The notes under the pieces are model-generated. The model made no database searches and had not been told where the DNA came from. It saw only the letters and a list, made by a program, of their open reading frames with translations. The translations under genes were made by a program, and so were the position numbers. Shown here one piece after another: positions 2,747 through 21,312 of a stretch of 29,105 bases of DNA. Numbering within the stretch: the stretch's first letter is position 1; each line of letters begins with the position of its first letter. Location of the stretch: positions 1 to 29,105 of IMG/VR virus record IMGVR_UViG_3300004209_000003, one strand, 5' to 3'. The DNA is from a virus (Duplodnaviria > Caudoviricetes).

Positions 2747-2959
2747 ATGGCAACCAAAAAAATAAAAACAATTGAGGAAGTCAGAGACGACTTTCGGAGG
2801 AAGGGTCTAACGATTAGATCCTGGGCCGCCAAGCATGGCGTCAGCGAGCGCACGACTTATGCAGTCATCTCTGGTGAAAACAAAGGCAATTATGGAAATG
2901 CCCACAAAATTGCTGTTTTGTTGGGTTTAAAAGATGGAGAAATAAATGCAGCTTGTTGA
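2747..2959 (+). CDS. ner: Ner-like DNA-binding regulator (BcepMu gp16-like)
   Basis: EEVRDDFRRKGLTIRSWAAKHGVSERTTYAVISG...GNAHKIAVLLGLKDG. First gene of the early operon. Confidence 0.8.
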   Translation: MATKKIKTIEEVRDDFRRKGLTIRSWAAKHGVSERTTYAVISGENKGNYGNAHKIAVLLGLKDGEINAAC

Positions 2960-4880
2960 TAGCACCACAATCGGAACAGCTTTATCAATGACGTCCAGAG
3001 GTGTAAGAAAACGCGCTCAGCGTGAGTCTTGGGAATACTCTGAAAGACAATCAAACGGTGGGGCGCAGCAAGTTTATCATTTTGAGGCTTTGCCTTCAGA
3101 AGTCCAAGCAAAAGTCGCATTACACTTGCTTCAAACGGGTCAGATTAAACCTGCTGAATCCCCAGATCAAACTCCCAAAACAGTCAAACGCAGTGCTTCA
3201 GGCTATGACCGTGACTCACTTTGGAGCTGGTACGACAGCCGCCCCCAAACCATCAAAGACGAAGGCACGCGCCGCGCTGGCTATTGTTTGAAAGTCCGGG
3301 CTTTGCTCGATTCGGGTCTCAAAGTCCGACCAGCTTTGGCCGAAGTGGCCCGCGTCGAAGGCGTCTCGCTGGCTTCGCTCAAACGCTGGTGGTATGGCGA
3401 TACCCTGATCATTGGGGCCGCCAATGTAGACCGCACAGATTTCGCCGCCGCCTTGGCTCCCCGCTATGCTGGCTGCCAAGACTATGCGGAATTTAGCCAA
3501 GACGCTTGGGACTGGATCAAAGCTGACTGGCTTCGCCCAGAACAGCCCTCGGCTGCGGCTGTCTACCGCCGAGCCCAAAGCATTGCAAAACAAAATGAGT
3601 GGGCCTTGCCCAGTTTGGCCACAGTCAAACGCCGCCTGGAGGCATTGCCTTGGCAGGTGCGCGTGCTGGCCCGTGAAGGCGAAGAAGCCCTCAAACGGAT
3701 GTTACCCCACGTCACTCGCAACAAAAGCAGTCTGCACGCCCTCGAAGTGGTCAACGCCGATGGCCATATCTTCGATCTGCGCGTGACCCTTCCCTCTGGT
3801 GAAGTGGGCCGCCCGGTTTTGGTGGCCTGGCAGGACATCTACAGTGGCAAAATTTTGGCGTGGCGCGTGGGCGAGACCCTGAATCAACACATTGTGCGCC
3901 TGGCTTTCGGGGATGTCGTTGAAAAATATGGTGTACCTGAGCATTGCTTCCTCGACAATGGCCGCGAATTTGCCAATAAATGGCTCACAGGCGGGGCCAA
4001 AACCCGCTTCCGATTCACCATTCGAGAGGATGATCCCATCGGGATTTTCACCCAATTGGGCATCAATGTTCACTGGACCACGCCCTACCATGGCCAATCC
4101 AAACCCATCGAACGTGCTTTTCTGGATTTATGTGAAGGAATATCCCGGCACCCCGCTTGCAGTGGGGCATATACAGGCAACAGCCCTGTTACCAAGCCCA
4201 GCAATTACGGCTCACGGGCATTGACCTGGGATGAATTCTTGGCTGTGGTTCAAGAGGGCATCACCGAACACAATGCCCGCACGGGCCGCCGCTCACAAAC
4301 CGCCAACGGGCGCTCTTTTGAACAGACCTTTGCAGAGTCTTATGCCACCAGCATGATTCGCAAAGCCACCGCCGAACAGCGCCGTCTCTGGCTCTTGGCT
4401 GCCGAGGGCGTCACCGTCATTCAAAGCGGCCATGTTGCCATCTTGAAAAATCTGTACTGGGGTGAAGCCGTTGCTGGCTTGGCCGGGCGCAAAGTCGTGG
4501 TGCGCTTTGATTCCGACAATCTCTCTTTGCCGGTCCACGTCTACGATTTGGCTGGTGAATACATTGGAGAAGCCTCTTGCACCCAGGCCAACTTTCTGGA
4601 TGCCCAAGCGGCCAAAGACCATGCCCGCGCCAACCGCCAAAAAATCAAAGCAGCAAAGGCGCAGCTTGACGCTGAACGCAAAATGGATGCCATCGAAGCC
4701 GCTCAGGCCCTGCCCAATGTGGTGCCCATGGAACGCCCTGCATCCAGCGTGATTGTGCCCATGTTCGAGAAGGCGCAAAAGGTCGCCAATGGCCCGGATG
4801 TAGATGAAATGCCCTCAGATGAGCGCTACATCTTGGACATCTTGAGCCGGATGCCCCGCCGCACAGAAGAAGATTTTTAA
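2946..4880 (+). CDS. A: Mu-like DDE transposase (MuA)
   Basis: N-terminal Mu winged HTH (GVRKRAQRESW...YHFEALPSEVQ). Catalytic NADGH, FLDNGREF and SKPIER motifs. C-terminal VVVRFD. Confidence 0.95.
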   Translation: MQLVDSTTIGTALSMTSRGVRKRAQRESWEYSERQSNGGAQQVYHFEALPSEVQAKVALHLLQTGQIKPAESPDQTPKTVKRSASGYDRDSLWSWYDSRPQTIKDEGTRRAGYCLKVRALLDSGLKVRPALAEVARVEGVSLASLKRWWYGDTLIIGAANVDRTDFAAALAPRYAGCQDYAEFSQDAWDWIKADWLRPEQPSAAAVYRRAQSIAKQNEWALPSLATVKRRLEALPWQVRVLAREGEEALKRMLPHVTRNKSSLHALEVVNADGHIFDLRVTLPSGEVGRPVLVAWQDIYSGKILAWRVGETLNQHIVRLAFGDVVEKYGVPEHCFLDNGREFANKWLTGGAKTRFRFTIREDDPIGIFTQLGINVHWTTPYHGQSKPIERAFLDLCEGISRHPACSGAYTGNSPVTKPSNYGSRALTWDEFLAVVQEGITEHNARTGRRSQTANGRSFEQTFAESYATSMIRKATAEQRRLWLLAAEGVTVIQSGHVAILKNLYWGEAVAGLAGRKVVVRFDSDNLSLPVHVYDLAGEYIGEASCTQANFLDAQAAKDHARANRQKIKAAKAQLDAERKMDAIEAAQALPNVVPMERPASSVIVPMFEKAQKVANGPDVDEMPSDERYILDILSRMPRRTEEDF

Positions 4881-5657: not shown

Positions 5658-6605
5658 ATGACAGAAAAAACGTCCGAAACCAAACCCAAAGCACCTGAAT
5701 CCGCGACACTCAAACAAGTGAGAGCCGAGATAGACAAACGCGGAATCACCCAAGGCCAAGTGGCCCGTGAGATCGGGCTCAGCCCCACCACGCTGACCCA
5801 ATTGCTCAACGGCACGTATGGAGCAGACCCTTCCAACCAGCTCGAAAAGATTGTGCGCTGGCTTTTGGCCCTGAAAGATCAGGACCATGTCAGAGGGCAA
5901 TTGCCTTCTGTCCCAGACTTTGTGCTGACACCCACTTCATCGCGGGTCATGGCTGCGCTGGGTTACGCCAAGCTGGCTGGAGATATTGCCGTGATTTATG
6001 GTGGGGCGGGCCTGGGCAAAACCACCACTGTGCGGGAATTTCAGCGCAGCTATCCCAATGTTTGGATCGCAACCATGAGCCCAGCCAAAGCCAGTGTTGC
6101 CGCAGCATTTGAAGAGCTGTGTGTCGCTGTCGGTTTTCGCTCTCCCGCAATGGGTGCAGCCCGGCAACAGCGAGACATCGAGCGCCGCCTTGCAGGCACC
6201 GAGGGCCTGCTAATAATCGACGAAGCTCAACACTTAAGCATTCCAGCGCTCGACGCAATTCGGGCCATTCATGACGCCACAGGCGTGGGTATTGCTCTGG
6301 TGGGCAATGAGGCTGTCTATGCCCGCATGACAGGTGGCAATCGTGCGGCCTATCTGGATCGCTTGTTCAGCCGCATCGGTAAAAAGGTCAAGCTGCAACA
6401 CCCCACATCCACAGATGTTGAAACCTTGGCTGGTGTCTTTAACATCACCGAAAAAGAGTCCATTGTTTTGCTCTGCCAGATTGGGGCTAAAGCGGGCGCA
6501 CTTCGTTCAGTCGTTAAAATTCTGCGCCTGGCAACCATGAAAGCTGAAGGGAAAACCCCTGATGCAGTCCACATCAGAGAAGCCTTGAAGGAGCTGGGTG
6601 TATGA
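5658..6605 (+). CDS. B: MuB-like AAA+ transposition ATPase with N-terminal HTH
   Basis: HTH ITQGQVAREIGLSPTTLTQLLNGTY, Walker A GGAGLGKT, Walker B LLIIDEAQ, and LFSRIG. Confidence 0.95.
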   Translation: MTEKTSETKPKAPESATLKQVRAEIDKRGITQGQVAREIGLSPTTLTQLLNGTYGADPSNQLEKIVRWLLALKDQDHVRGQLPSVPDFVLTPTSSRVMAALGYAKLAGDIAVIYGGAGLGKTTTVREFQRSYPNVWIATMSPAKASVAAAFEELCVAVGFRSPAMGAARQQRDIERRLAGTEGLLIIDEAQHLSIPALDAIRAIHDATGVGIALVGNEAVYARMTGGNRAAYLDRLFSRIGKKVKLQHPTSTDVETLAGVFNITEKESIVLLCQIGAKAGALRSVVKILRLATMKAEGKTPDAVHIREALKELGV

Positions 6606-11809: not shown

Positions 11810-12107
11810 CTTAGATATCCACCGTGCAGAACGGGAGTTTCTTCGCTGGATTATCATCACAGCCCTGTGGCACGCCCGCCCCTATGGCTGTCATGAACGG
11901 ATCATTCTTCGTGCGGCTCAGGATATGCCGTTGCAAATCACCACTGACCAATTGCGCCAAGAAATGGATTATGTCGAAGAAAGCGGCTTTTGCAAAATAG
12001 ACAAAAGTGGGGAGCTTTGGCACGCTAAAATCACCCCCAAAGGCACAGATCTTGTAGATTACCGGGAAGATTGCCCCAAGGGCATTGCCCGCCCACCTAA
12101 GTGGTAA
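11799..12107 (+). CDS. Mu gp26-like winged-helix protein
   Basis: REFLRWIII.AL..ARPYG...LRQEMDYVE...ITPKGTDLVDY...GIARP. Directly before TerS. Confidence 0.75.
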   Translation: MPDNLDIHRAEREFLRWIIITALWHARPYGCHERIILRAAQDMPLQITTDQLRQEMDYVEESGFCKIDKSGELWHAKITPKGTDLVDYREDCPKGIARPPKW

Positions 12108-12112
12108 ACCCC

Positions 12113-12652
12113 ATGTCAAAACCCTCCAAAGTTGAACTGATGCCAACCGAAGTGCGCGACTGGCTGGATAAAGCCCTGATTGACCGCTCGTTTTCTGGCT
12201 ACAAGGAACTCGAAGCCCTGATGAAAGAAAGAGGGTTTGACATCAGTCACGCCGCCATCCATCGCCACGGCCAAAAACTTGAGCGTCGATTGCAGGCTAT
12301 CAAAACCAGCACCGAAGCGGCCAAGCTGATTGCCGAGGCAGCTCCCGATCAGGCTGACCACCGCAGCGCCGCCACCACGGCCCTGATTCAAACATCTCTC
12401 TTTGACGCCCTGGTGGATGTGCAAGAGGCAGAAGAAACCCTCGATCCAGTCAAGAAGGTCAAGCTTTTGGCTGGGGCTGCAGCCGCCTTTTCCATGCTCG
12501 CAAAATCCAGCCTGGCACAAAAGCAGTGGGAGGAAAAAGTCAGGATAAAGCTGGATGCCCTGGAAAAAGCTGCTCAACAGGAAACGGGCGAGAAAAAGAC
12601 CGTCACGCTTGAAATCCTGAATATGATTCGCAAAGAAGTCTACGGTGTTTGA
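12113..12652 (+). CDS. terS: Terminase small subunit (Mu gp27 / DUF3486-like)
   Basis: SKVELMPTEVRDWLDKAL...FSGYKELE...ISHAAIHRHG...IRKEVYGV. Confidence 0.85.
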   Translation: MSKPSKVELMPTEVRDWLDKALIDRSFSGYKELEALMKERGFDISHAAIHRHGQKLERRLQAIKTSTEAAKLIAEAAPDQADHRSAATTALIQTSLFDALVDVQEAEETLDPVKKVKLLAGAAAAFSMLAKSSLAQKQWEEKVRIKLDALEKAAQQETGEKKTVTLEILNMIRKEVYGV

Positions 12653-12663
12653 AGGAGTACCCC

Positions 12664-13449
12664 ATGTCTGATCTCTGCCCCATTTGTCCCTATCTCAGGA
12701 GCGCGTTTACTCTCGAAACGGGCCTTGGCTGGAGTGCCTATCACGGCAACTCTATCGAAGTGCTGAAGTCCCTGCCAGAAGGCTCTGTCGATGCCTTGAT
12801 CTCTGACCCGCCTTACGGAACTGGTGCCAATACTCTGATGGGCCGTCTGAAGCCTTCTTCGGAAAAATACCGCAGCACAGGGGCCGCCCCTCTGCCAGAT
12901 ATTGACGGGGACTCGCTCATGCCTGAAGCCTGGCAGGATATGATGGGTCAGATATTGCGCAGATCCTACCGGGTTCTCAAACCAGGAGCAACAGTGCTGC
13001 TGTTTTGCGATTGGCGTAGCCTGCCCAGTCTAATCAACGTGGTCAGCTATTCAGGTTTTGCCCTGCAGGCGGTCCCAGTCTGGGACAAAGGCCGGGGCTC
13101 ACGCCCGCGCAAGAATGGTTTTCGCTCTCAATCCGAGCTGATTCTCTGGGCCAAAAAGCCAGGTGTTTTAGATGGCCCTGAACCCCCGGTCTATCTGGAT
13201 GGGGTGCTGAAGCATTCCACTTTGAGCAATCACAAGCAGCACTTGACCCAAAAGCCGCTCCCATTGATGAAAGAACTGGTGCGCGTTGTGCCCAAGAAGG
13301 GGCTGGTTTTAGACCCCTTTCAAGGCAGTGGCACCACTGGCGTTGCTGCACTGGAGCAGGGGCTGACGTATATCGGGATTGAATCAGTGCCCGAATACCA
13401 CAAGATTGCCTGTGAAAGACTGGCTGCATCCCAAGCCCGCGCCGCTTGA
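12664..13449 (+). CDS. Amino (N6-A/N4-C) DNA methyltransferase, beta class
   Basis: SVDALISDPPYG (motif IV) precedes HLTQKP and VLDPFQGSGTTG (motif I). GAAGGAG SD. Confidence 0.9.
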   Translation: MSDLCPICPYLRSAFTLETGLGWSAYHGNSIEVLKSLPEGSVDALISDPPYGTGANTLMGRLKPSSEKYRSTGAAPLPDIDGDSLMPEAWQDMMGQILRRSYRVLKPGATVLLFCDWRSLPSLINVVSYSGFALQAVPVWDKGRGSRPRKNGFRSQSELILWAKKPGVLDGPEPPVYLDGVLKHSTLSNHKQHLTQKPLPLMKELVRVVPKKGLVLDPFQGSGTTGVAALEQGLTYIGIESVPEYHKIACERLAASQARAA

Positions 13450-13457
13450 GGTAAATT

Positions 13458-14807
13458 TTGTCTATCCTTCTTCCCTACCAAAAAACCTATCTGGCAGACA
13501 AATCGCGATTCAAAGCGGGGATGTTTGCCCGTCAAACAGGGAAGACATTCACTACAACCCTCGAAGCCACCGACGATTGCATGGAGGCTGAAGCCACAGG
13601 CCGCATCTCTCGCTGGACCATTCTTTCGGGCTCAAAGGCCCAGGCCAAAGAGGCCATCGATACGGGTGTGAAATTGCATTTAAACGCTTATCGAACGGTG
13701 TTTGAATACCTCGAACAGCCCTTTGATGAAGACATCGACGAACTGGCCTATGAAGTTCGCTTCAAAGGGGGTTCCCGTATTCGTGCTGTGGCCGCCAACC
13801 CCGCCACAGCCCGTGGCAAATCCGACAATATTATCCTAGATGAATTTGGCTTTCACAAAGACAATCGCGCCATTTGGCGGGCCTTATTCCCCATTATTTC
13901 CAGACGTGATCTGAAGCTGCGTGTCATCTCAACCCCCAATGGTATGGGTGACAAATTCTTTGAAGTCATGAACTCGGAAAAGATGGGCCGAGTTTTCTCC
14001 CGGCATGTCATCGACATTTATCAGGCGGTGGCTCAGGGCCTGGACCGCGACATTGAAGAGCTGCGCGATGGGATGAATGACCCCGATGGCTGGGCCCAGG
14101 AGTTTGAATGCAGATTCATTGACGCAGCCACAGCTTGGTTAACCTTTGAGCTGATTGATGCGTGTGAAGATCCCTTGGCGGGCATGCCCGAAGAGTATCA
14201 AGGGGGGCTGTGCTTTGTCGGGATGGACTTTGGCCGCCGCCGTGACTTGACCACCATTTATGTGCTCGAAGACGTCGAGGGCGTCTTGTGGCTGCGCGAA
14301 TGGGTCGAACTGGAGCGTAAACCCTTTCGGGAGCAATTGGCCGAGCTGGATCGCATCTTTAAAACCTATCGGGTGGTGCGGGCTGCACTTGACCAGACGG
14401 GTATGGGAGAAATGCCTGTCGAAGAAGCCAAAGCGGCACACGGCTCCAGCCGGATTCTGGGGGTTTTGTTTCAAGGCCCGGCCAAAATGGAAATGGCCAC
14501 AGCCCTGAAGCAGCGAATGGAAGACCGGCAATTGAAGCTGCCAAAACGCTCTGAGCTGCGAGATGACTTGCACTCTGTTTCTAAGCGGGTTGGCCCGACT
14601 GGCATCCCTCAGATTTCTGCTCCGCGCATCAATGGATCACATGCTGACCGTTTCTGGGCATTGGGTTTGGCCTGTATGGCGGCCTCCAGTGCCGAAATGC
14701 CAGACTTTAACAAAATTCAAACCACAGGGGAATTCACCCAGCAGGAAAGTGGCCTGTGGCTGCCAACTTGGGGAACAGTAGAAGGAGCACGTTATGACGG
14801 ATACTGA
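13458..14807 (+). CDS. terL: Terminase large subunit (Mu gp28-like)
   Basis: LLPYQ, Walker A ARQTGKT, Walker B IILDEF, ISTPNG, nuclease GMDFGR and HADRFWA. Confidence 0.92.
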   Translation: MSILLPYQKTYLADKSRFKAGMFARQTGKTFTTTLEATDDCMEAEATGRISRWTILSGSKAQAKEAIDTGVKLHLNAYRTVFEYLEQPFDEDIDELAYEVRFKGGSRIRAVAANPATARGKSDNIILDEFGFHKDNRAIWRALFPIISRRDLKLRVISTPNGMGDKFFEVMNSEKMGRVFSRHVIDIYQAVAQGLDRDIEELRDGMNDPDGWAQEFECRFIDAATAWLTFELIDACEDPLAGMPEEYQGGLCFVGMDFGRRRDLTTIYVLEDVEGVLWLREWVELERKPFREQLAELDRIFKTYRVVRAALDQTGMGEMPVEEAKAAHGSSRILGVLFQGPAKMEMATALKQRMEDRQLKLPKRSELRDDLHSVSKRVGPTGIPQISAPRINGSHADRFWALGLACMAASSAEMPDFNKIQTTGEFTQQESGLWLPTWGTVEGARYDGY

Positions 14808-16293
14808 GGCCAAAACCACACGGCCCGAACTCAACGAAATTGCCAGTACCAACGATGGCCGGGATATTACCAGAGGATTTGTCGAAGCCCTGCATTACCT
14901 GAGCCCCACCGACAAAGTTTTGCAACAGGCGGGAGGCCTGGAATCGTATGAGGAGCTGCTCAAAGACGATCAGGTTTCTGCTACCTTTGCCCAGCGCAGA
15001 AATGCAGTGCTTGCCCGCCCATGGACAGTGACACCAGGGGGCACCAAGCGTCAGGACAAATTGGCGGCTAAACTGGTCCAAGAAACCTTGAAGGCCCTGC
15101 CTTGGGACACGATCACCGACCATATGCTTTACGCCAGGTTGTACGGCTATGCTGTGGCCGAAGTCATGTGGGTTGTTAATAGCCTGGTCAAAATCTCAGA
15201 CATTCGCGTGCGTGACCGCCGCCGCTTTGTTTTCGCCCCCGACAACTCCCTTAAAATGCTCACCCACAGAAACCCCAATGGCGAGGTTTTGCCTGATCGC
15301 AAGTTCTGGGTTTCGAGTGTTGGCGCTAGCCACAACGATGAACCTTATGGCCTGGGCCTGGGCCATGCGCTCTATTGGCCCGTCTTTTTTAAACGCAACG
15401 GGGCCCGCTTTTGGGCCAAGTTTATGGAAAAATTTGCATCGCCCACCGCCATGGGAACCTTTCCCGCTGGGGCCTCAGATTCAGAGCGTCAGAAGCTCTT
15501 GGGGGCGGTTCGGGCTGTGGCAATGGATTCAGGGATTATCATTCCCGAAGGTACTCAAATTCAACTCCTCGAAGCCACACGGGGCGGGAATGCCTCTTAT
15601 GGAGAATGGCTCCATTATTGGGATAGCGCAATTGCCAAGGTCATCCTCGGCCAAACCATGACCACCGAAGACGGGAGCAGCTATTCCCAAGCCACGGTGC
15701 ATTATGCGGTTCGCCAAGATTTGGTAAAAGCTGATGCCGACTTGGTTTCTCAAACTGCTAACAGCTCTTGGGTGCGCTGGCTGGTTGACTACAATTTTGC
15801 TGGGGCTGCTTATCCTCAGGTCTGGCGAGATATGGAAGACGCCGAAGATCTGGAGCAGCGCTCAACCCGAGACAAAACCCTCTTTGACATGGGATTCAAA
15901 CTCACCCCCGAAGCCGTGACCCGTATCTATGGCGACGATTATGAGCCCATCGAACCCCCGCAGCCAGAAACGAAGCCCGATCCCATTCCCGCCAAACAAG
16001 AACAGACCGCCCCGGCCCTAGCCGAAGGCGACGAAATTGACTTGACCCCCAGCCCAGTTGAGCCCCTGGCCAATGCACTGGACCAACAAAGTGCGCCTGC
16101 CTGGCGTAAAATTCTGGACCACATTCAGCAGCTGGTAAACAGCGCCCCCGATCTCCCGACTCTGCGTGATGCTCTTTTAAATGCCTATGCAGAGCTGCCC
16201 GGCGATGAACTTGGGGATGTGATGGCCTTGGCCATGCTGACCGCTGAACTGGCGGGACGGTACGATGTTGAACAGGAATCCGCCGATGACTGA
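14794..16293 (+). CDS. Portal protein (Mu gp29 / DUF935)
   Basis: YGYAVAEVMW, PYGLGL..LYWP..FK, IAKVILGQTMTT. Confidence 0.92.
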   Translation: MTDTEAKTTRPELNEIASTNDGRDITRGFVEALHYLSPTDKVLQQAGGLESYEELLKDDQVSATFAQRRNAVLARPWTVTPGGTKRQDKLAAKLVQETLKALPWDTITDHMLYARLYGYAVAEVMWVVNSLVKISDIRVRDRRRFVFAPDNSLKMLTHRNPNGEVLPDRKFWVSSVGASHNDEPYGLGLGHALYWPVFFKRNGARFWAKFMEKFASPTAMGTFPAGASDSERQKLLGAVRAVAMDSGIIIPEGTQIQLLEATRGGNASYGEWLHYWDSAIAKVILGQTMTTEDGSSYSQATVHYAVRQDLVKADADLVSQTANSSWVRWLVDYNFAGAAYPQVWRDMEDAEDLEQRSTRDKTLFDMGFKLTPEAVTRIYGDDYEPIEPPQPETKPDPIPAKQEQTAPALAEGDEIDLTPSPVEPLANALDQQSAPAWRKILDHIQQLVNSAPDLPTLRDALLNAYAELPGDELGDVMALAMLTAELAGRYDVEQESADD

Positions 16294-17482
16294 GCCCGCG
16301 ATCTCAGGCGTCTTTCGGGAGCCCTTTCAAGAACAGGTGGCCTTCTTTCGGCAGAAACTTGGCAATCTGGTTCCCACTGAGCGCTGGACAGACATGCAAA
16401 AAGAAGCGCATGACAAGGGCTTTATGGTGGCAGGCGCTGCCAAAGCGGATTTGCTGTCTGACCTTGCCGCTGCCGTGGACAAAGCGATCAGCCAGGGCAC
16501 AAGTTTGGGCGCTTTTCGCAAAGACTTCAAAAGCATTACTGCCCGCCATGGCTGGGATTACCGTGGGGAATTCAACTGGCGCACAAAGGTCATTTACCAA
16601 ACCAATATGGCCACCAGTTATGCTGCCGGACGCTTGGCCCAGCTCCGTGATGCCGAATTCACTCACTGGGAATACATTCACAGCAATGCCGTGGCCCACC
16701 CGCGTAAGCAGCACTTGGGTTGGAATGGTCTGGTACTCTCTGCAGATGATCCGTTTTGGAATGCGCACTACCCACCCAATGGCTGGGGCTGTCAGTGCCG
16801 GGTAAGAGGCCGGAACAATCCAGATAAAGTGGGGCAGGCCCCTGATGACGAGATTGACCCCCGCACGGGTGAGCCAGTGGGCATAGACAAGGGTTGGGGT
16901 TATATGCCCGGCAATACTGTCAGCGCCACAGTGACGTCCTTGGCCGCTCGCACCGTGCAATGGAAATATGAGCTGGCAAAGGCTTATCTGGAGAATTTAC
17001 CGGAAGGGCTCAAAGACCAATTTTCCCGCTCTATGCGTGATTTGCCATCAACAAGAGACGCGGCAAGGCAGTTTGCTGGGCGCGTATTGGATGATCGCAA
17101 TCATACCGAATACCAGTCTATGGGCCTGCTGACATCTGAAGATGTCTCTAAAATTCAGGAATTGAAAGGCCTTGATGTGGCTGGGTATGATTTTGCGCTT
17201 GACCCGTCTTCGGTAAGACATATCCAGAAAAAACATGGAGACTTAAAATCTGAAGCCTTGCGTGGTCAAAGAGCAGTCACAAAGGAAGACTATGAAAAGA
17301 TTCCTGAATTACTCAACTCACCAGATGAAATTACAGACTCAGGCTTATCTCATACTACAAATAATCCATTGATCGAGTACTCAAAGGTAATTGGTCAAGA
17401 TAAGTATTCGCTGGTGCTTGAATATCGTAAGAAACGAAAGATGTTGGTTTCGACAACATTCTACATTCAAGGGGGGAATTAA
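16286..17482 (+). CDS. muF: MuF (gp30) minor head protein fused to a C-terminal PBECR-like nuclease domain
   Basis: MuF motifs IYQTNM..SYAAGR and DDPFW..HYPPNGWGCQCRV. C-terminal SVRHIQKKHG...EALRGQRAVTKEDYEKIPELLNSPDEI resembles PBECR (Barnase-EndoU-ColicinE5/D-RelE fold) domains. Confidence 0.82.
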   Translation: MTEPAISGVFREPFQEQVAFFRQKLGNLVPTERWTDMQKEAHDKGFMVAGAAKADLLSDLAAAVDKAISQGTSLGAFRKDFKSITARHGWDYRGEFNWRTKVIYQTNMATSYAAGRLAQLRDAEFTHWEYIHSNAVAHPRKQHLGWNGLVLSADDPFWNAHYPPNGWGCQCRVRGRNNPDKVGQAPDDEIDPRTGEPVGIDKGWGYMPGNTVSATVTSLAARTVQWKYELAKAYLENLPEGLKDQFSRSMRDLPSTRDAARQFAGRVLDDRNHTEYQSMGLLTSEDVSKIQELKGLDVAGYDFALDPSSVRHIQKKHGDLKSEALRGQRAVTKEDYEKIPELLNSPDEITDSGLSHTTNNPLIEYSKVIGQDKYSLVLEYRKKRKMLVSTTFYIQGGN

Positions 17483-17489
17483 GATGATT

Positions 17490-17565
17490 TGGCAGGAGCT
17501 GCAACGGTACGTGCTTTTCAGCCTTATCCCTACGTCCGAAACGCTTCGCAGTAGTTCCCCTGCCA
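17490..17565 (-). ncRNA. Candidate structured small RNA, probably antisense-transcribed
   Basis: Closing stem TGGCAGG/CCTGCCA with nested complementary segments. Minus-strand TATAAT at 17571-17576 places +1 at the stem base. Confidence 0.45.
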
Positions 17566-17590
17566 TTTCTATTATACCCTGAGAGCCATT

Positions 17591-17815
17591 ATGTCTAACA
17601 ACACAGCCCAAACCCTTTTCCCCGAAGAAGTAGAGATGTTGGTCAACCATTTCAGGCACCAGACCGGCAATCCCAGAATTGAATCCTTTCTCTCGCTAAA
17701 CAATCCCAACCTTTGGCTGATTGGCCAGCAAGTGGGCTCCAGTTTGCATGTGATCGCAGAGTATGAAAAGTTTGACCTGGAGCTGAAAATACTCAAGGGA
17801 GACGATTTTTTCTGA
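17591..17815 (+). CDS. Hypothetical protein (possible immunity protein)
   Basis: 74 aa downstream of the MuF-nuclease. TGATG coupled to gpG. Confidence 0.55.
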   Translation: MSNNTAQTLFPEEVEMLVNHFRHQTGNPRIESFLSLNNPNLWLIGQQVGSSLHVIAEYEKFDLELKILKGDDFF

Positions 17816-18387
17816 TGCAATTTGACATCAAGCTTGATGATTCAATGGTGCTCAACTCCCTGCGCCGCTTGCAACTTAAGACCAGCAACCTTAAGCCTGT
17901 GATGTCTGAAATAGGGGAAGAGATGCTGGAGAGTGTCAAGAAGCGCTTTGAAACCAGTACAGGCCCAGACGGTCAAAAGTGGGCCGCAAACAAAGAAAGC
18001 ACGCTCCTGAAAATGCTCAGCCAGACCAAAGGCAATTTCAAAATTAAGACAGTCACAAGTAAATCTGGGAGCAAACGGGAAATTAAGGTGGGAGGACTGA
18101 GAAAAAAAGGTCAGGAACGTGTCTCTGGTAAAAAGCCCTTGATTGGTGATAGCAAAGCGCTCTCAGGAACCATAAATTACCGGGCCACATCTGACTCTTT
18201 GAAAGTCGGCAGCAACATGATTTATTCGCGGGTACAGCACTTTGGCGCAGGCAAGGGGGCCTTTGGGGCAACCAGACGCGGGGCACCAATTCCTTGGGGA
18301 AGTATTCCTGGTCGCCCATATCTGGGCTTTTCGGATGAGGACCGCTCGATAATTTTAGAGACAGTTGAGAAGTATTTGAAGGCCTGA
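17815..18387 (+). CDS. G: Virion morphogenesis protein (Mu gpG/gp31 family)
   Basis: KRFETSTGPDGQKW...VGSNMIYSRVQHFG...IPGRPYLGFS. Confidence 0.9.
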   Translation: MQFDIKLDDSMVLNSLRRLQLKTSNLKPVMSEIGEEMLESVKKRFETSTGPDGQKWAANKESTLLKMLSQTKGNFKIKTVTSKSGSKREIKVGGLRKKGQERVSGKKPLIGDSKALSGTINYRATSDSLKVGSNMIYSRVQHFGAGKGAFGATRRGAPIPWGSIPGRPYLGFSDEDRSIILETVEKYLKA

Positions 18388-18421
18388 ATCTCTCTGGGGA
18401 TGGTGGCTATTTTCCAAGTTT

Positions 18422-18739
18422 TTAAACTGCTGTCACAGTTGTTCTGATAGCCACTTGTGTGGAATTGGGAAAGAATCTGCGTCTGATATTATTCGATAAA
18501 ACAACGGCTTCTTGTTCTGCTGTATCCTGATCAGCAAATTCCGCAACGAAAGAAAAGCGATTTTCGACAAACTCCCTGCCAAGAGCTGTTTCGGCTTGTC
18601 GTAAATGTATGAGTTCAAAATCAGGGGGCATGGTAAATCTTGAGTTTGCGCTAATGAAATCTGTAAGTTCTTGAGTAAAATCAGGAAGAGGTGTGGGTAG
18701 ATCTTCCAAAAAATCATATCTAATTTGAAAATTAGCCAT
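18422..18739 (-). CDS. Hypothetical protein, antisense accessory gene
   Basis: 105-aa AT-rich ORF filling the G-I gap on the opposite strand. Confidence 0.6.
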   Translation of the reverse strand: MANFQIRYDFLEDLPTPLPDFTQELTDFISANSRFTMPPDFELIHLRQAETALGREFVENRFSFVAEFADQDTAEQEAVVLSNNIRRRFFPNSTQVAIRTTVTAV

Positions 18740-18964
18740 ATTGTTTACTGCTTAAGCCTCGCATTTTTTAAATTCCAAGATCTAATGTTACCTTCTTTTC
18801 CTAATATATGAAAACAAAACCCGTTTAACCCCGTTTGAAAGCCGTTTAAATTTTGTTTTGACCAGCTTGGTGGTATAAAGAGAGTATTCAGATCTGACAC
18901 CGGCCTTAAAATCGATTCTACGGCGTCTCGCTATTCTCCTTCTAAACTATCCCCGGTGTGAAGT

Positions 18965-19002
18965 ATGTCACCACGACACCACACCGCCTTGCCGCCTACG
19001 AT
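18965..19002 (+). promoter_or_regulatory. Late promoter (PI-like) with activator box
   Basis: ATGTCACCACGACAC (18965-18979), 17 nt, TACGAT (18997-19002). Confidence 0.7.
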
Positions 19003-19008
19003 GGGGGC

Positions 19009-20010
19009 ATGAATCAAGCACTTTCTCCCCAAACACCCACCCACAATCTTCGCCCGGCCCGCATTCACGCGCTGAAAGCAGGCACTTGGCAGAGCTTGGG
19101 TGGCGCTGTTTCCCTTTCCCTTTTTGACCTGGCTCATATCGCTGAGTCTTATAATCCCGCTTTACACGAAGCTCCTGTCGTGATTGGCCACCCGGCAACG
19201 GATGACCCTGCTTTTGGCTGGGTGCGTTCAGTTGATTTGCAATCAGATGGCTTGTGGCTGAATACGGAGCTGCTGCCTGAGATGGCAGATCTCGTCAAGC
19301 GGAGTTTGTACAAAAAGGTATCTGTATCGCTGTATCCACCTGATGCTCCTGCCAATCCTGTGCCCGGTGGTTATTCCATCAAGCACTTGGGTTTTCTGGG
19401 AGCACAGCCGCCAGCGGTCAAAGGGCTTCAGGGAGTGGTGCTCAATAGCGAGTCTGATCAGACGATTATCATCGAATTCGAGGAGGCCCGTATGGGTGAC
19501 GAAAACAAAGACCCTGCCTTGGCGCTGGCTGAAAAGCAAGCGAGCTTAGCACAAGAACAGCAGGTACTGACTCAGAAAAAAACTGAGATCGACCTGGCTG
19601 AACAAAATTTGACCAAGCGCGAACGCGACCTGCGTCAAAAAGAATGGGGCATCCAGCTCGATTCTCATATCCAGGCTGGGCGCTTGCTGCCCAAAGACAA
19701 GGCTCAAGTCTTGGCTTTTATGGAAGGTCTTCATGGCCAAAATGTGGATCTCGGCGAAGGTGAAAAACCCATGCTGGATTCATTCAAGGAATTTTTGGCG
19801 GCCCTGCCTGCCCAGGTCAATCTGAGCGAAGTCGCCCCCGCAGACAAGGCGGCCACGCCCCCTGTCGCTGTTAACTTCGCAGCCCCTGCCGGTTATGAAG
19901 TCGACGCCCAAAGCTTGGCTCTTCATCAGAAAGCCAAGGAATGGATGTCTAAAAACCCAGGCAAACTCTATACCGAAGCCATTCGCGCTATTGAAGGAGG
20001 TGCTGCCTAA
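19009..20010 (+). CDS. I: Prohead protease/scaffold (Mu gpI/Z-like)
   Basis: HEAPVVIGHP..DDPAFGWV, YKKVSVSLY, HLGFLGAQPPAVKGL, then a coiled-coil scaffold. ATG 19009 chosen because the upstream frame overlaps the promoter. Confidence 0.85.
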   Translation: MNQALSPQTPTHNLRPARIHALKAGTWQSLGGAVSLSLFDLAHIAESYNPALHEAPVVIGHPATDDPAFGWVRSVDLQSDGLWLNTELLPEMADLVKRSLYKKVSVSLYPPDAPANPVPGGYSIKHLGFLGAQPPAVKGLQGVVLNSESDQTIIIEFEEARMGDENKDPALALAEKQASLAQEQQVLTQKKTEIDLAEQNLTKRERDLRQKEWGIQLDSHIQAGRLLPKDKAQVLAFMEGLHGQNVDLGEGEKPMLDSFKEFLAALPAQVNLSEVAPADKAATPPVAVNFAAPAGYEVDAQSLALHQKAKEWMSKNPGKLYTEAIRAIEGGAA

Positions 20011-20376: not shown

Positions 20377-21312
20377 ATGTCCCAGATGAATCCTTCACAG
20401 GCCCGTGTCATCGATCCCGTTTTGACAGAAGTGGCCCGTGGTTACAAGCACCCTGAGCGGGTGGGTATGAAGTTGTTTCCCGAAGTGCCTGTGGGCCAGC
20501 GCGGTGGGAAAATTATTCAGTTTGGAAAAGATTCTTTCAAGCTGTACCAGACAGGCAGAGCCCCCGGTGGCAATGTGGCTGTCGTGGATTATGGCTATTC
20601 AGGGTCCAGTTACTCGCTCGAACAGCACGCCATTTCTGGTAAGGTGCCCATCGAGCTGCTCGAAGAAGCCAAAGCCGTTCCAGGTATTGACCTGAGCAAA
20701 GGCGCTGTCCAACAGGCCCAGGATATTATCTCCTTGCGCCTGGAGTACCAGCAGGCCACCATTGCCAGAACAGCGGGCACCTACGCATCAGGTAACAAGG
20801 TGACTCTTTCTGGTTCCTCTCAATGGAGCCATGCCGATTCTAACCCCTCTGCAGACATTGAAACAGCCCGTGAGGCAATTCGCGCCAAAACTGGGTTTTA
20901 TCCCAATATCACACTGCTTTCACCCAAGGCTTTTTCAGCATTAAAAGTCCACACCCGTATTCTCGACCGGATGAAATACACAGGTCGGGATTCGCTCACA
21001 ACAGACATGCTGGCCAAACTCTGGGACATTGACGAAGTTGTGGTTGGCAAAGGTGTTACGGCATCGGATGCAGGCGTGTTCTCAGATATCTGGGGCAAAG
21101 ATGTCATCTTGGCCTATGTCGCCACCGGAAACCTGGCATCCATGGGCACCCCCAGCTATGGCTATACCTACCGCTTGCGCAATTACCCGATTGCCGAGCA
21201 AGGTTATTACGCAGCTGGCAGCCGTTCATGGTTCTATCCCGTGATTGATGAAGTTTCGCCCGTGATTGCAGGGGCTGAAGCGGGCTATCTGATCACCAAC
21301 GCGGTGGCCTAA
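20377..21312 (+). CDS. Major capsid protein
   Basis: IDPVLTEVARGY, LSGSSQWS, PSYGYTY. AAGGAG SD. Position in head module. Confidence 0.85.
   Translation: MSQMNPSQARVIDPVLTEVARGYKHPERVGMKLFPEVPVGQRGGKIIQFGKDSFKLYQTGRAPGGNVAVVDYGYSGSSYSLEQHAISGKVPIELLEEAKAVPGIDLSKGAVQQAQDIISLRLEYQQATIARTAGTYASGNKVTLSGSSQWSHADSNPSADIETAREAIRAKTGFYPNITLLSPKAFSALKVHTRILDRMKYTGRDSLTTDMLAKLWDIDEVVVGKGVTASDAGVFSDIWGKDVILAYVATGNLASMGTPSYGYTYRLRNYPIAEQGYYAAGSRSWFYPVIDEVSPVIAGAEAGYLITNAVA

Follow-up and report, generated by a model that had tools for sequence, protein, structure and literature searches.

Type III toxin-antitoxin systems (toxIN, cptIN, and tenpIN) combine an endoribonuclease toxin with an adjacent structured, pseudoknot-capable noncoding RNA and are frequent in phages and mobile elements; their antitoxin is an array of 34- to 36-nucleotide (nt) repeats placed upstream of the toxin on the same strand. 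Type I toxins are mostly small membrane peptides, and the antisense RNAs that control them need only complementarity. Antisense antitoxins overlapping the 3' end of the toxin gene are known (RatA for txpA and SR4 for bsrG), and SymE/SymR includes an RNase-like type I toxin. Here, we analyzed a 29,105-nt stretch of viral DNA (Caudoviricetes; IMG/VR record IMGVR_UViG_3300004209_000003, positions 1 to 29,105; hereafter the window), in which a gene for a MuF head protein fused to a C-terminal PBECR3 ribonuclease (RNase) domain is followed by a gap that carries a conserved, structured element. Judging from sequence, the gap element is a predicted small antisense RNA gene that may well act as an RNA antitoxin or immunity factor neutralizing the PBECR3 RNase, a reading to which we give an even chance.

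The element shares with type III systems an endoribonuclease with an adjacent structured RNA and, by analogy, the proposed binding and silencing of the RNase by that RNA. It differs from them in that the toxin has the BECR/PBECR3 fold and not that of ToxN/AbiQ, that the RNA is single-copy (two in one locus, L108) with no repeat array, and that it lies downstream, in antisense and behind its own predicted promoter, and may even lie inside the toxin open reading frame (ORF). Like the RNAs of txpA/RatA, bsrG/SR4, and SymE/SymR, which are often found in prophages, it would be a convergent antisense RNA placed where a toxin gene ends. However, the toxin here is an RNase domain of ~110 amino acids within proteins of 154 to 1000+ amino acids, including a virion protein, rather than a small hydrophobic peptide, and conservation extends to an invariant hairpin and to tertiary pairs that covary. 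Judged by what defines each type, the element appears to belong to neither and would represent a further variation on the RNA-antitoxin principle. Type III systems are classified into three families.

MuF polymorphic toxins carry a swappable C-terminal toxin domain, for which a cassette of toxin and antidote is expected in the sections at hand of Jamet et al. 2017 (PMC5576092); supplements aside, these sections nowhere mention antisense RNA. The window gene has the same layout, with an N-terminal MuF domain and a variable C-terminal toxin domain, but the conserved neighbor of the PBECR3 type is an RNA-like element and not a small ORF. The same domain family, fused to MuF, portal, and giant proteins, was described among polyvalent proteins, together with an inactive PBECR-like MuF-C domain in phage Mu gp30; the part of Iyer et al. 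2017 (PMC5512222) available here treats proteins only and, supplements aside, does not contain the terms "antisense," "noncoding," or "RNA gene." The available text of a 2026 preprint on PBECR groups PBECR3 with colicin D-like active sites and, supplements aside, mentions no RNA partner. Our literature search on BECR or colicin D RNA antitoxins and on MuF with antisense RNA returned nothing relevant among the records listed.

The window MuF gene matches Phage_Mu_F (E value, 2.2e-12) and PBECR3 (E value, 8.5e-20) in Pfam. Its PBECR3 domain spans residues ~295-402 (nt ~17147-17470) and retains both histidines in the motif RHIQKKHG; the alignment of the domain shows H35, H40, D70, and K90 to be conserved. 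The element-bearing gap comprises 108 base pairs (bp) between the MuF stop (17480-17482) and a small ORF, ORF74 (17591-17815). The parts of the locus are as follows.

16265-17482, plus strand: MuF head protein with a PBECR3 RNase domain at its C terminus (Pfam)
17490-17565, minus strand: predicted 76-nt structured small RNA (covariance model R2, 93.1 bits)
17557-17565, minus strand: 5' strand of the closing stem P1, RNA UGGCAGGGG, pairing with 17490-17498
17490-17498, minus strand: 3' strand of P1, RNA CUCCUGCCA, ending 8 nt from the MuF stop codon
17548-17551, minus strand: 5' strand of P2, RNA CUGC, pairing with 17499-17502 (RNA GCAG)
17532-17543: core ACGTCCGAAACG
17533-17543, minus strand: core hairpin, RNA CGUUUCGGACG (CGUU-UCG-GACG, one U.G pair), reading CGTCCGAAACG on the plus strand
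17513-17522, minus strand: P4 hairpin, RNA GCU-GAAA-AGC
17571-17576, minus strand: perfect -10 box TATAAT, 5 nt ahead of P1, with +1 predicted at ~17564-17566
17592-17597, minus strand: weak -35-like TAGACA (5/6), 15 nt from the -10 box

The predicted RNA is laid out as P1-J-P2-core hairpin-G-rich linker-P4 hairpin-P2'-P1', and P1 in the window has 9 bp, one of them G.U. The initial annotation, made from the letters alone, had proposed the pairing of TGGCAGG (17490-17496) with CCTGCCA (17559-17565), of CTGC (17499-17502) with GCAG (17548-17551), and of CGG-T-ACGT (17505-17512) with ACGTCCG (17532-17538), all of which are present at these coordinates, as are the GCT-TTTC-AGC mini-hairpin (17513-17522) and the minus-strand TATAAT (17571-17576) with TAGACA (17592-17597) at 15 nt, the latter indeed weak. 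It had also discounted an ordinary terminator, in agreement with a terminator scan that was empty at 17483-17600 on both strands and with the nested, multi-helix fold. Rfam 15 held no match over the window element at an E value of ≤10 and none at ≤1 in 20 related loci, PADLOC had no match at the locus, and no tandem repeats were found in 17000-18000. The 11-mer CGTTTCGGACG occurs at three sites in the own genome, none within a repeated RNA gene.

A closing stem, CTGC...GCAG, ACGTCCGAAACG, and ATTATA recur 3' of MuF-PBECR3 homologues in viral contigs and genomes. The suggestion in the initial annotation that the core returns after PBECR domains in different reading frames was borne out: the core encodes PTSET in the window, PYVRKR in L073, PSETL in L068, TSETS in L074, and NVRNV in L075, and it reads GTSETS inside a polyvalent ORF. 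Because the core is translated in varying frames, no peptide is conserved, and these frame shifts among relatives uphold the proposal that conservation acts on nucleotides rather than on the peptide. The core hairpin is invariant or nearly so in one set of these RNAs, group A (the type found in the window), with U-A replaced by C-G in L106b, L171, and L048 and with U.G variants in L002 and L015. P1 and P2 drift freely in sequence while the hairpin CGUY-NNN-GRCG, with its invariant 3' half GGACG, is kept across very different hosts.

Alignment of raw group A sequences with MAFFT and RNAalifold misaligned the 3' half and returned four pairs only, and a single-sequence model (R1) was too weak for distant members; covariance models were used instead. 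In the resulting alignment A9, comprising eight distinct group A sequences fitted to model R2, 94.4% of cells were paired and 15 of the 20 pairs changed on both sides, and none of 500 shuffles reached any of these measures; slid partners paired in 38 to 46%. The compensatory changes that the initial annotation called for are thus present. P1, P2, the core hairpin, and P4 all covary, with double changes in 9/9, 2/4, 1/4 (U-A to C-G), and 3/3 pairs, respectively, and the P2 pairs 21/77 and 22/76 flip from G-C to C-G in relatives. Closing stems differ from locus to locus (GGCAGG/CCTGCC, CCCATT/AATGGG, GCAGAAG/CTTCTGC, and GAGAACG/CGTTCTC), and stem strands pair with their own partners over 9.1 bp on average versus 4.9 bp for mismatched partners, a descriptive figure from hand-picked stems. 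By comparison among loci, that is, by conservation, covariation, and linkage, the element is clearly beyond chance.

Linkage to the PBECR3 domain is strict, both in a scan of MuF loci and in a search of the domain family. The scan covered 54 MuF loci and looked for the core hairpin motif between -150 and +200 relative to the stop; Pfam searches of 57 proteins provided the domain assignments. Many of these loci duplicate one another, and distinct MuF-type elements number ~13. The motif lies at -8 to +51 of the stop in 19 of the 23 MuF loci with a Pfam PBECR3 match, and two more (L001 and L073) have it in a form with 1 nt inserted (R2 score, 73.7 bits). Two loci with a homologous C terminus and no Pfam match above the cut-off (L009 and L048) have the motif at -8. 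The other 29 of the 54 loci, which encode short MuFs or carry PBECR2, MuF_C, intein, or DRAT domains, show no motif at that position. It is also absent from two loci with a PBECR3 match, L011 and L058. At L058, there is a closing stem with an antisense TATACT, along with a terminator hairpin of a different sequence type. In L011, RTILSTDD stands in place of RHIxxxHG with loss of both catalytic histidines, and the G gene begins right at the stop; phage Mu gp30 reads ARLLVMNG, likewise without the two histidines, and has no gap and no element. The element is absent where the RNase has lost its catalytic histidines, and RHIxxxHG is retained in those element-bearing MuF and polyvalent domains that can be aligned to the motif. 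Within the window's clade, with two inactive cases, this suggests that the element may be needed only with an active enzyme.

A search with model R2 in the window's class gave matches confined to the two PBECR3-carrying genomes (G000 and G046, three each), apart from one weak extra match, in G038 (E value, 0.005), which is without the core and was rejected as chance. A motif-free scan for a stem with an antisense promoter at MuF stops separated long MuF toxins from short MuFs and was also positive at C-terminal domains other than PBECR3 (L026, L031, L042, and L054). A stem with an antisense TATACT or TATAAT was likewise seen at the stop of L021 (2826-2960), L026, L054, and L017, whose C termini are PBECR2, MuF_C, or unassigned; the rule may therefore extend beyond PBECR3.

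The element is not restricted to MuF genes. A pattern scan of viral contigs returned 64 matches, 11 of which are true elements (L081, L088, L092, L097, L106, L108, L120, L129, L131, L138, and L141); the remaining 53 proved on inspection to lack flanking stems and were discarded as chance. All 11 lie within giant ORFs that are open across the whole 3-kilobase locus and encode PBECR3 directly upstream of the element, plus ART and PBECR5 domains, with the linker ...GTSETSGRN.... In L081, for instance, PBECR3 occupies residues 374-485 and the element residues ~479-520, and PBECR3 and the element each occur twice in L106, where the second element has the core CGCUUCGGGCG. Tandem elements 78 nt (26 codons) apart occur inside the polyvalent ORF in L108 (1382-1583) and L120; a promoter-like box stands ahead of the first element of this pair only. 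Among named phages, Rhodobacter RC1 and Rhodovulum RS1 carry the core TAACGTCCGAGACG directly after the stop, and Burkholderia phiE131 and its relatives have the element inside the coding sequence with an antisense TTGAAA-16-TACTAT. A faecal phage contig carries the module too.

Searching 401 genomes of the phylum with Pfam PF18812 located 19 PBECR3 places in 15 genomes, and behind every one of them lie a P1-closed structure and a promoter in antisense (17 scored by script; L143 and L144 read by eye). Eight of the 19 encode solo toxins of 136 to 162 amino acids between unrelated housekeeping genes, with no conserved protein partner; solo toxin and RNA-like element form a two-part module of the toxin-antitoxin kind. 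The RNAs of the solo toxins differ in sequence from the others and follow the same plan. A plain MAFFT alignment (A7) gives them four helices plus a pseudoknot between loops; 94.2% of its cells are paired, 14 of its 28 pairs have changed on both sides, and the pseudoknot covaries (CUUGC/GCAAG, CUCCC/GGGAG, and CUCGG/CCGAG). Across three gene architectures (MuF fusions, giant polyvalent ORFs, and solo toxins), the element is locked to the 3' edge of an active PBECR3 coding sequence, and it accompanied all of the catalytically intact PBECR3 domains examined.

Antisense promoter-like hexamers accompany the element at this conserved place. A minus-strand -10 box (A2 + T6) ends 4 to 10 nt ahead of P1 in 24 of 24 elements, in keeping with the antisense -10 that the initial annotation had placed at the base of the closing stem, and matches at ≥5/6 positions in 20 of them. 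A -35 match of ≥5/6 is present in 18 of the 24, 17 of these with a 16- to 17-nt spacer, and the same search on the opposite strand found nothing in 6 elements and weaker sites in most others. The promoter scan called TTGAAA-17-TATAAT (11/12) in L154. Past P1', 18 of the 24 elements have a U-tract, with ≥5 T among the first 8 nt.

All stems can form on the plus strand as well, and the element separates MuF from the head gene that follows; in relatives of high GC content, the Shine-Dalgarno region of the following gene is overlapped by the -10-like box. It could accordingly be a plus-strand cis element of the late messenger RNA (mRNA), such as a terminator, a stabilizer, or a translation regulator of the next gene, with incidental minus-strand hexamers. 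This is the least probable of the explanations we weighed, and we give it hardly any weight. In the antisense reading there are 21 G.U cells versus 2 A.C cells, which favors the minus strand, and wobbles that do not depend on the alignment (three U.G in P1 of L108b, one G.U in P2 of L074, and UGCCG/CGGUG in L081) point the same way. The hairpins CGUCCAGGGCG (L002), CGUCACGGGCG (L015), and CGCUACGGGCG (L048) contain U.G, which on the plus strand would be C x A. Moreover, the window has neither a U-tract nor a terminator call on the plus strand, the element is also found within ORFs and behind solo toxins whose downstream genes are unrelated, and full TTGAAA/TTGACA-17-TATAAT/TATACT promoters are found on the minus strand only.

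On the antitoxin reading, the RNA would be transcribed leftward from ~17565 and fold into a compact P1-closed domain, in which the toxin domain would recognize the invariant hairpin (CGUU-UCG-GACG, with the 3' half GGACG). Bound by the RNA, the RNase would stay inactive in a lysogen or producing cell up to the point at which the protein enters the head and is delivered. The mode of action would resemble that of type III pairs, with another toxin fold, only one copy of the RNA, and genes that converge. A protein-bound, silencing RNA is favored because the hairpin is kept while the stems drift and because of the kissing pair of the solo-toxin RNAs. In its widest form, the proposal is that every active PBECR domain of phages comes with a transfer RNA (tRNA)-sized antisense RNA gene at its 3' edge, within giant ORFs too, whose RNA binds and silences it via the invariant hairpin; with the solo toxin-RNA pairs of small-genome bacteria, this would constitute a new RNA-antitoxin family, the first RNA immunity for a polymorphic or virion-delivered toxin, with some members being tRNA look-alikes; to this we give slightly less than an even chance.

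Convergent transcription and full complementarity to the toxin transcript would fit a type I-like RNA, which would act only by pairing with the 3' or an internal part of the toxin mRNA, triggering its cleavage or blocking expression. This is the main rival, although we judge it unlikely. The window lacks a U-tract past P1', so the RNA may continue into the MuF 3' end. In addition, an RNA-library run (metatranscriptome) yielded two contigs in 20 kilobases at a depth of 3.6-4.2, of 198 nt (17354-17551) and 152 nt (19523-19674), and the first would suit a longer antisense transcript overlapping at least the last 126 nt of MuF. However, pairing in cis is automatic and needs no set sequence, so the fixed hairpin argues for recognition by a trans factor; CGUY-NNN-GRCG is kept and P1 and P2 are free. 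The covarying loop-loop pseudoknot of the solo-toxin RNAs is typical of RNAs that fold to be bound. Coding overlap is minimal because most elements end in a U-tract at the toxin stop, and no consistent complementarity to toxin starts was found at five loci (z, -2.05 to +0.97).

The initial annotation had called the RNA tRNA-sized. Its size agrees (76 nt), but neither ARAGORN nor Rfam revealed a true likeness to tRNA in the window; such likeness was seen only at other loci. At L031, the same slot (antisense, at the MuF stop) holds an ARAGORN tRNA-Arg (UCG) that matches the Rfam tRNA family at 32.1 bits (cut-off, 29). This sequence (L031:2818-2894, minus strand) lies behind a TATAAT box and has an acceptor stem stretched to ~11-13 bp, and the MuF C-terminal domain there is unassigned. 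The RNA might on this basis be a replacement, decoy, or cofactor, either a tRNA-like stand-in or diversion or a partner RNA packed with the protein. Colicin D cleaves tRNA-Arg, and the window loop UUUCGGA is identical at 5 of 7 positions to the anticodon loop CUCCGGA of the host tRNA-Arg(CCG). T-arm-like hairpins occur in L042 (~3690-3790) and L143 (~1340-1420) (GGTTCGAGTCC, GGGTTCAAATCC; GCTGGTTCGAGTCCAGC, CGGGTTCAAATCCG) with no tRNA called, in antisense elements located where MuF or polyvalent toxins end, and the four helices of the solo-toxin RNAs are arranged much like a cloverleaf, with loops that kiss. Nonetheless, we regard such a role as improbable: ARAGORN found no gene in the window and none at 24 other elements, and Rfam gave no tRNA match; the U-A to C-G covariation shuts the loop to 5 or 3 nt instead of the 7 of an anticodon loop; the "anticodon" positions vary freely in group B; and the L031 toxin domain is not detectably PBECR3.

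Several observations weigh against an RNA antitoxin in the window. The single-sequence fold is unremarkable and barely beyond chance: the 118-nt stretch folds at -26.3 (plus) and -30.7 (minus) kcal/mol (z, -1.03 and -0.78), and the 80-nt core has z values of -1.94 (plus) and -2.43 (minus), with 7/200 and 5/200 shuffles as stable. The promoter scan made no call for the minus-strand promoter of the window because its -35 is weak, and only 3 T occur in the first 8 nt past P1'. The RNA-library contigs are unstranded, with possible DNA carry-over, and are too little to call expression. The covariation alignments are model-fitted, with eight sequences each from few lineages. RNA subtype does not track toxin similarity, since the L006 toxin is 49% identical to that of the window yet has a group B RNA and the L073 toxin is 35% identical with a group A RNA. 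In L154 and L160 (solo-toxin group) and in L058, the motif region cannot be aligned to RHIxxxHG, which is why the histidine correlation is limited as described above. Finally, ORF74 is located right after the gap and may be the protein antidote in this phage.

The last point belongs to a further explanation, namely, that the antidote is a protein, either ORF74 (17591-17815) or a 32-amino-acid ORF (17484-17582), and that the element is unrelated to toxin control. Small immunity ORFs are assumed for MuF toxins by Jamet et al. (PMC5576092), and the 32-amino-acid plus-strand ORF lies behind a Shine-Dalgarno-like GGGGGG run. That ORF was nevertheless rejected as chance, as were other small gap ORFs, because frames and starts differ among relatives, which carry ORFs in a different frame or lack them. 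ORF74, which matches no family in Pfam, PHROG, or PADLOC, is present only in the window, in the second Mu-like prophage of the same genome (L073), and in G042; the second-prophage copy is 63% identical, and the toxins there are 35% identical. It is missing from the other MuF-PBECR3 loci, including all three PBECR3 loci of G046; at the other MuF-PBECR3 loci, a G-like gene comes directly next, with no conserved small immunity ORF. A related phage contig bears on the question as well, in which one block is exchanged as a unit.

16926-17604: block made up of the toxin domain at the MuF C terminus, the element, and its promoter region, swapped as a unit in a related phage contig (run X11)

In record 1 of X11, the joint runs from 16925 to 17605, with 679 letters skipped and 705 between, and the flanks 16813-16925 and 17605-18041 are kept, so that the N-terminal part of MuF and ORF74 stay in place when the toxin block is swapped. 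The swap fits the movement of toxin-antidote cassettes expected for MuF toxins. On these grounds, a protein antidote with an unrelated element seems very improbable. The two MuFs of the own genome are 78% identical over residues 4-298 and 38% identical in the C-terminal domain. Compared with a related DNA contig (run X7), 17216-17697 has a single difference (17487 A>G) and 16849-17215 has 18 among those listed; the two phages are therefore unusually alike at the toxin end, the element, and the start of ORF74.

Small immunity proteins are generally assumed to curb polymorphic toxins and those delivered by phages, and the conserved neighbor of PBECR3, a widespread RNase domain, is RNA-like instead. 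If the RNA is indeed an antitoxin, it would explain how PBECR3 phages and giant polyvalent proteins spare the producing cell, and it would add a fourth RNA-antitoxin family to the three of type III, with a different toxin fold and gene layout. It would also show that a long ORF can harbor, on its antisense strand, an RNA gene with its own promoter, a place that gene callers do not search. Solo toxin-RNA pairs from small-genome bacteria and cultured phages, e.g., Rhodobacter phage RC1, make the idea readily testable.

The window is a Mu-like prophage, with the following genes around the MuF locus.

2946-4880: MuA transposase
5658-6605: MuB
12101-12652: gp27
12649-13449: DNA methylase
13458-14807: large terminase
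14794-16293: Mu portal
17815-18387: G-like virion morphogenesis gene
18958-20010: protease
20377-21312: major head protein

A blastn search of 16900-18400 against phage records gave no match, and a metagenome scan with the PBECR3 domain recovered a 100%-identical copy only. The own genome (G000) holds three copies of the element, in the window, in the second Mu-like prophage (contig C48), and in an orphan fragment (C43). The orphan (C43:20560-20625; L061/L164) has an intact core, lacks the 3' strands of P1 and P2, and scores 43 bits with R2; it lies just past the terminator of a lipoprotein-like gene, with no PBECR3 nearby. Elsewhere among the MuF loci, six genes (L034, L038, L042, L043, L045, and L056) are split directly after the MuF domain by an intein-like insertion (Pfam Intein_splicing; E values, 1.9e-6 to 7.6e-4, all under the curated cut-off). 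A Mu-like viral contig carries a C4 antisense RNA (L032:3136-3222; Rfam RF01695, 65.8 bits; cut-off, 45) ~800 nt downstream of its MuF gene. In the window, the G-like gene and the protease are separated by a 570-bp gap (18388-18957) that includes a 105-amino-acid minus-strand ORF (18422-18739) without a Pfam family, and phage Mu has an annotated gyrase cut site at the position matching this gap.

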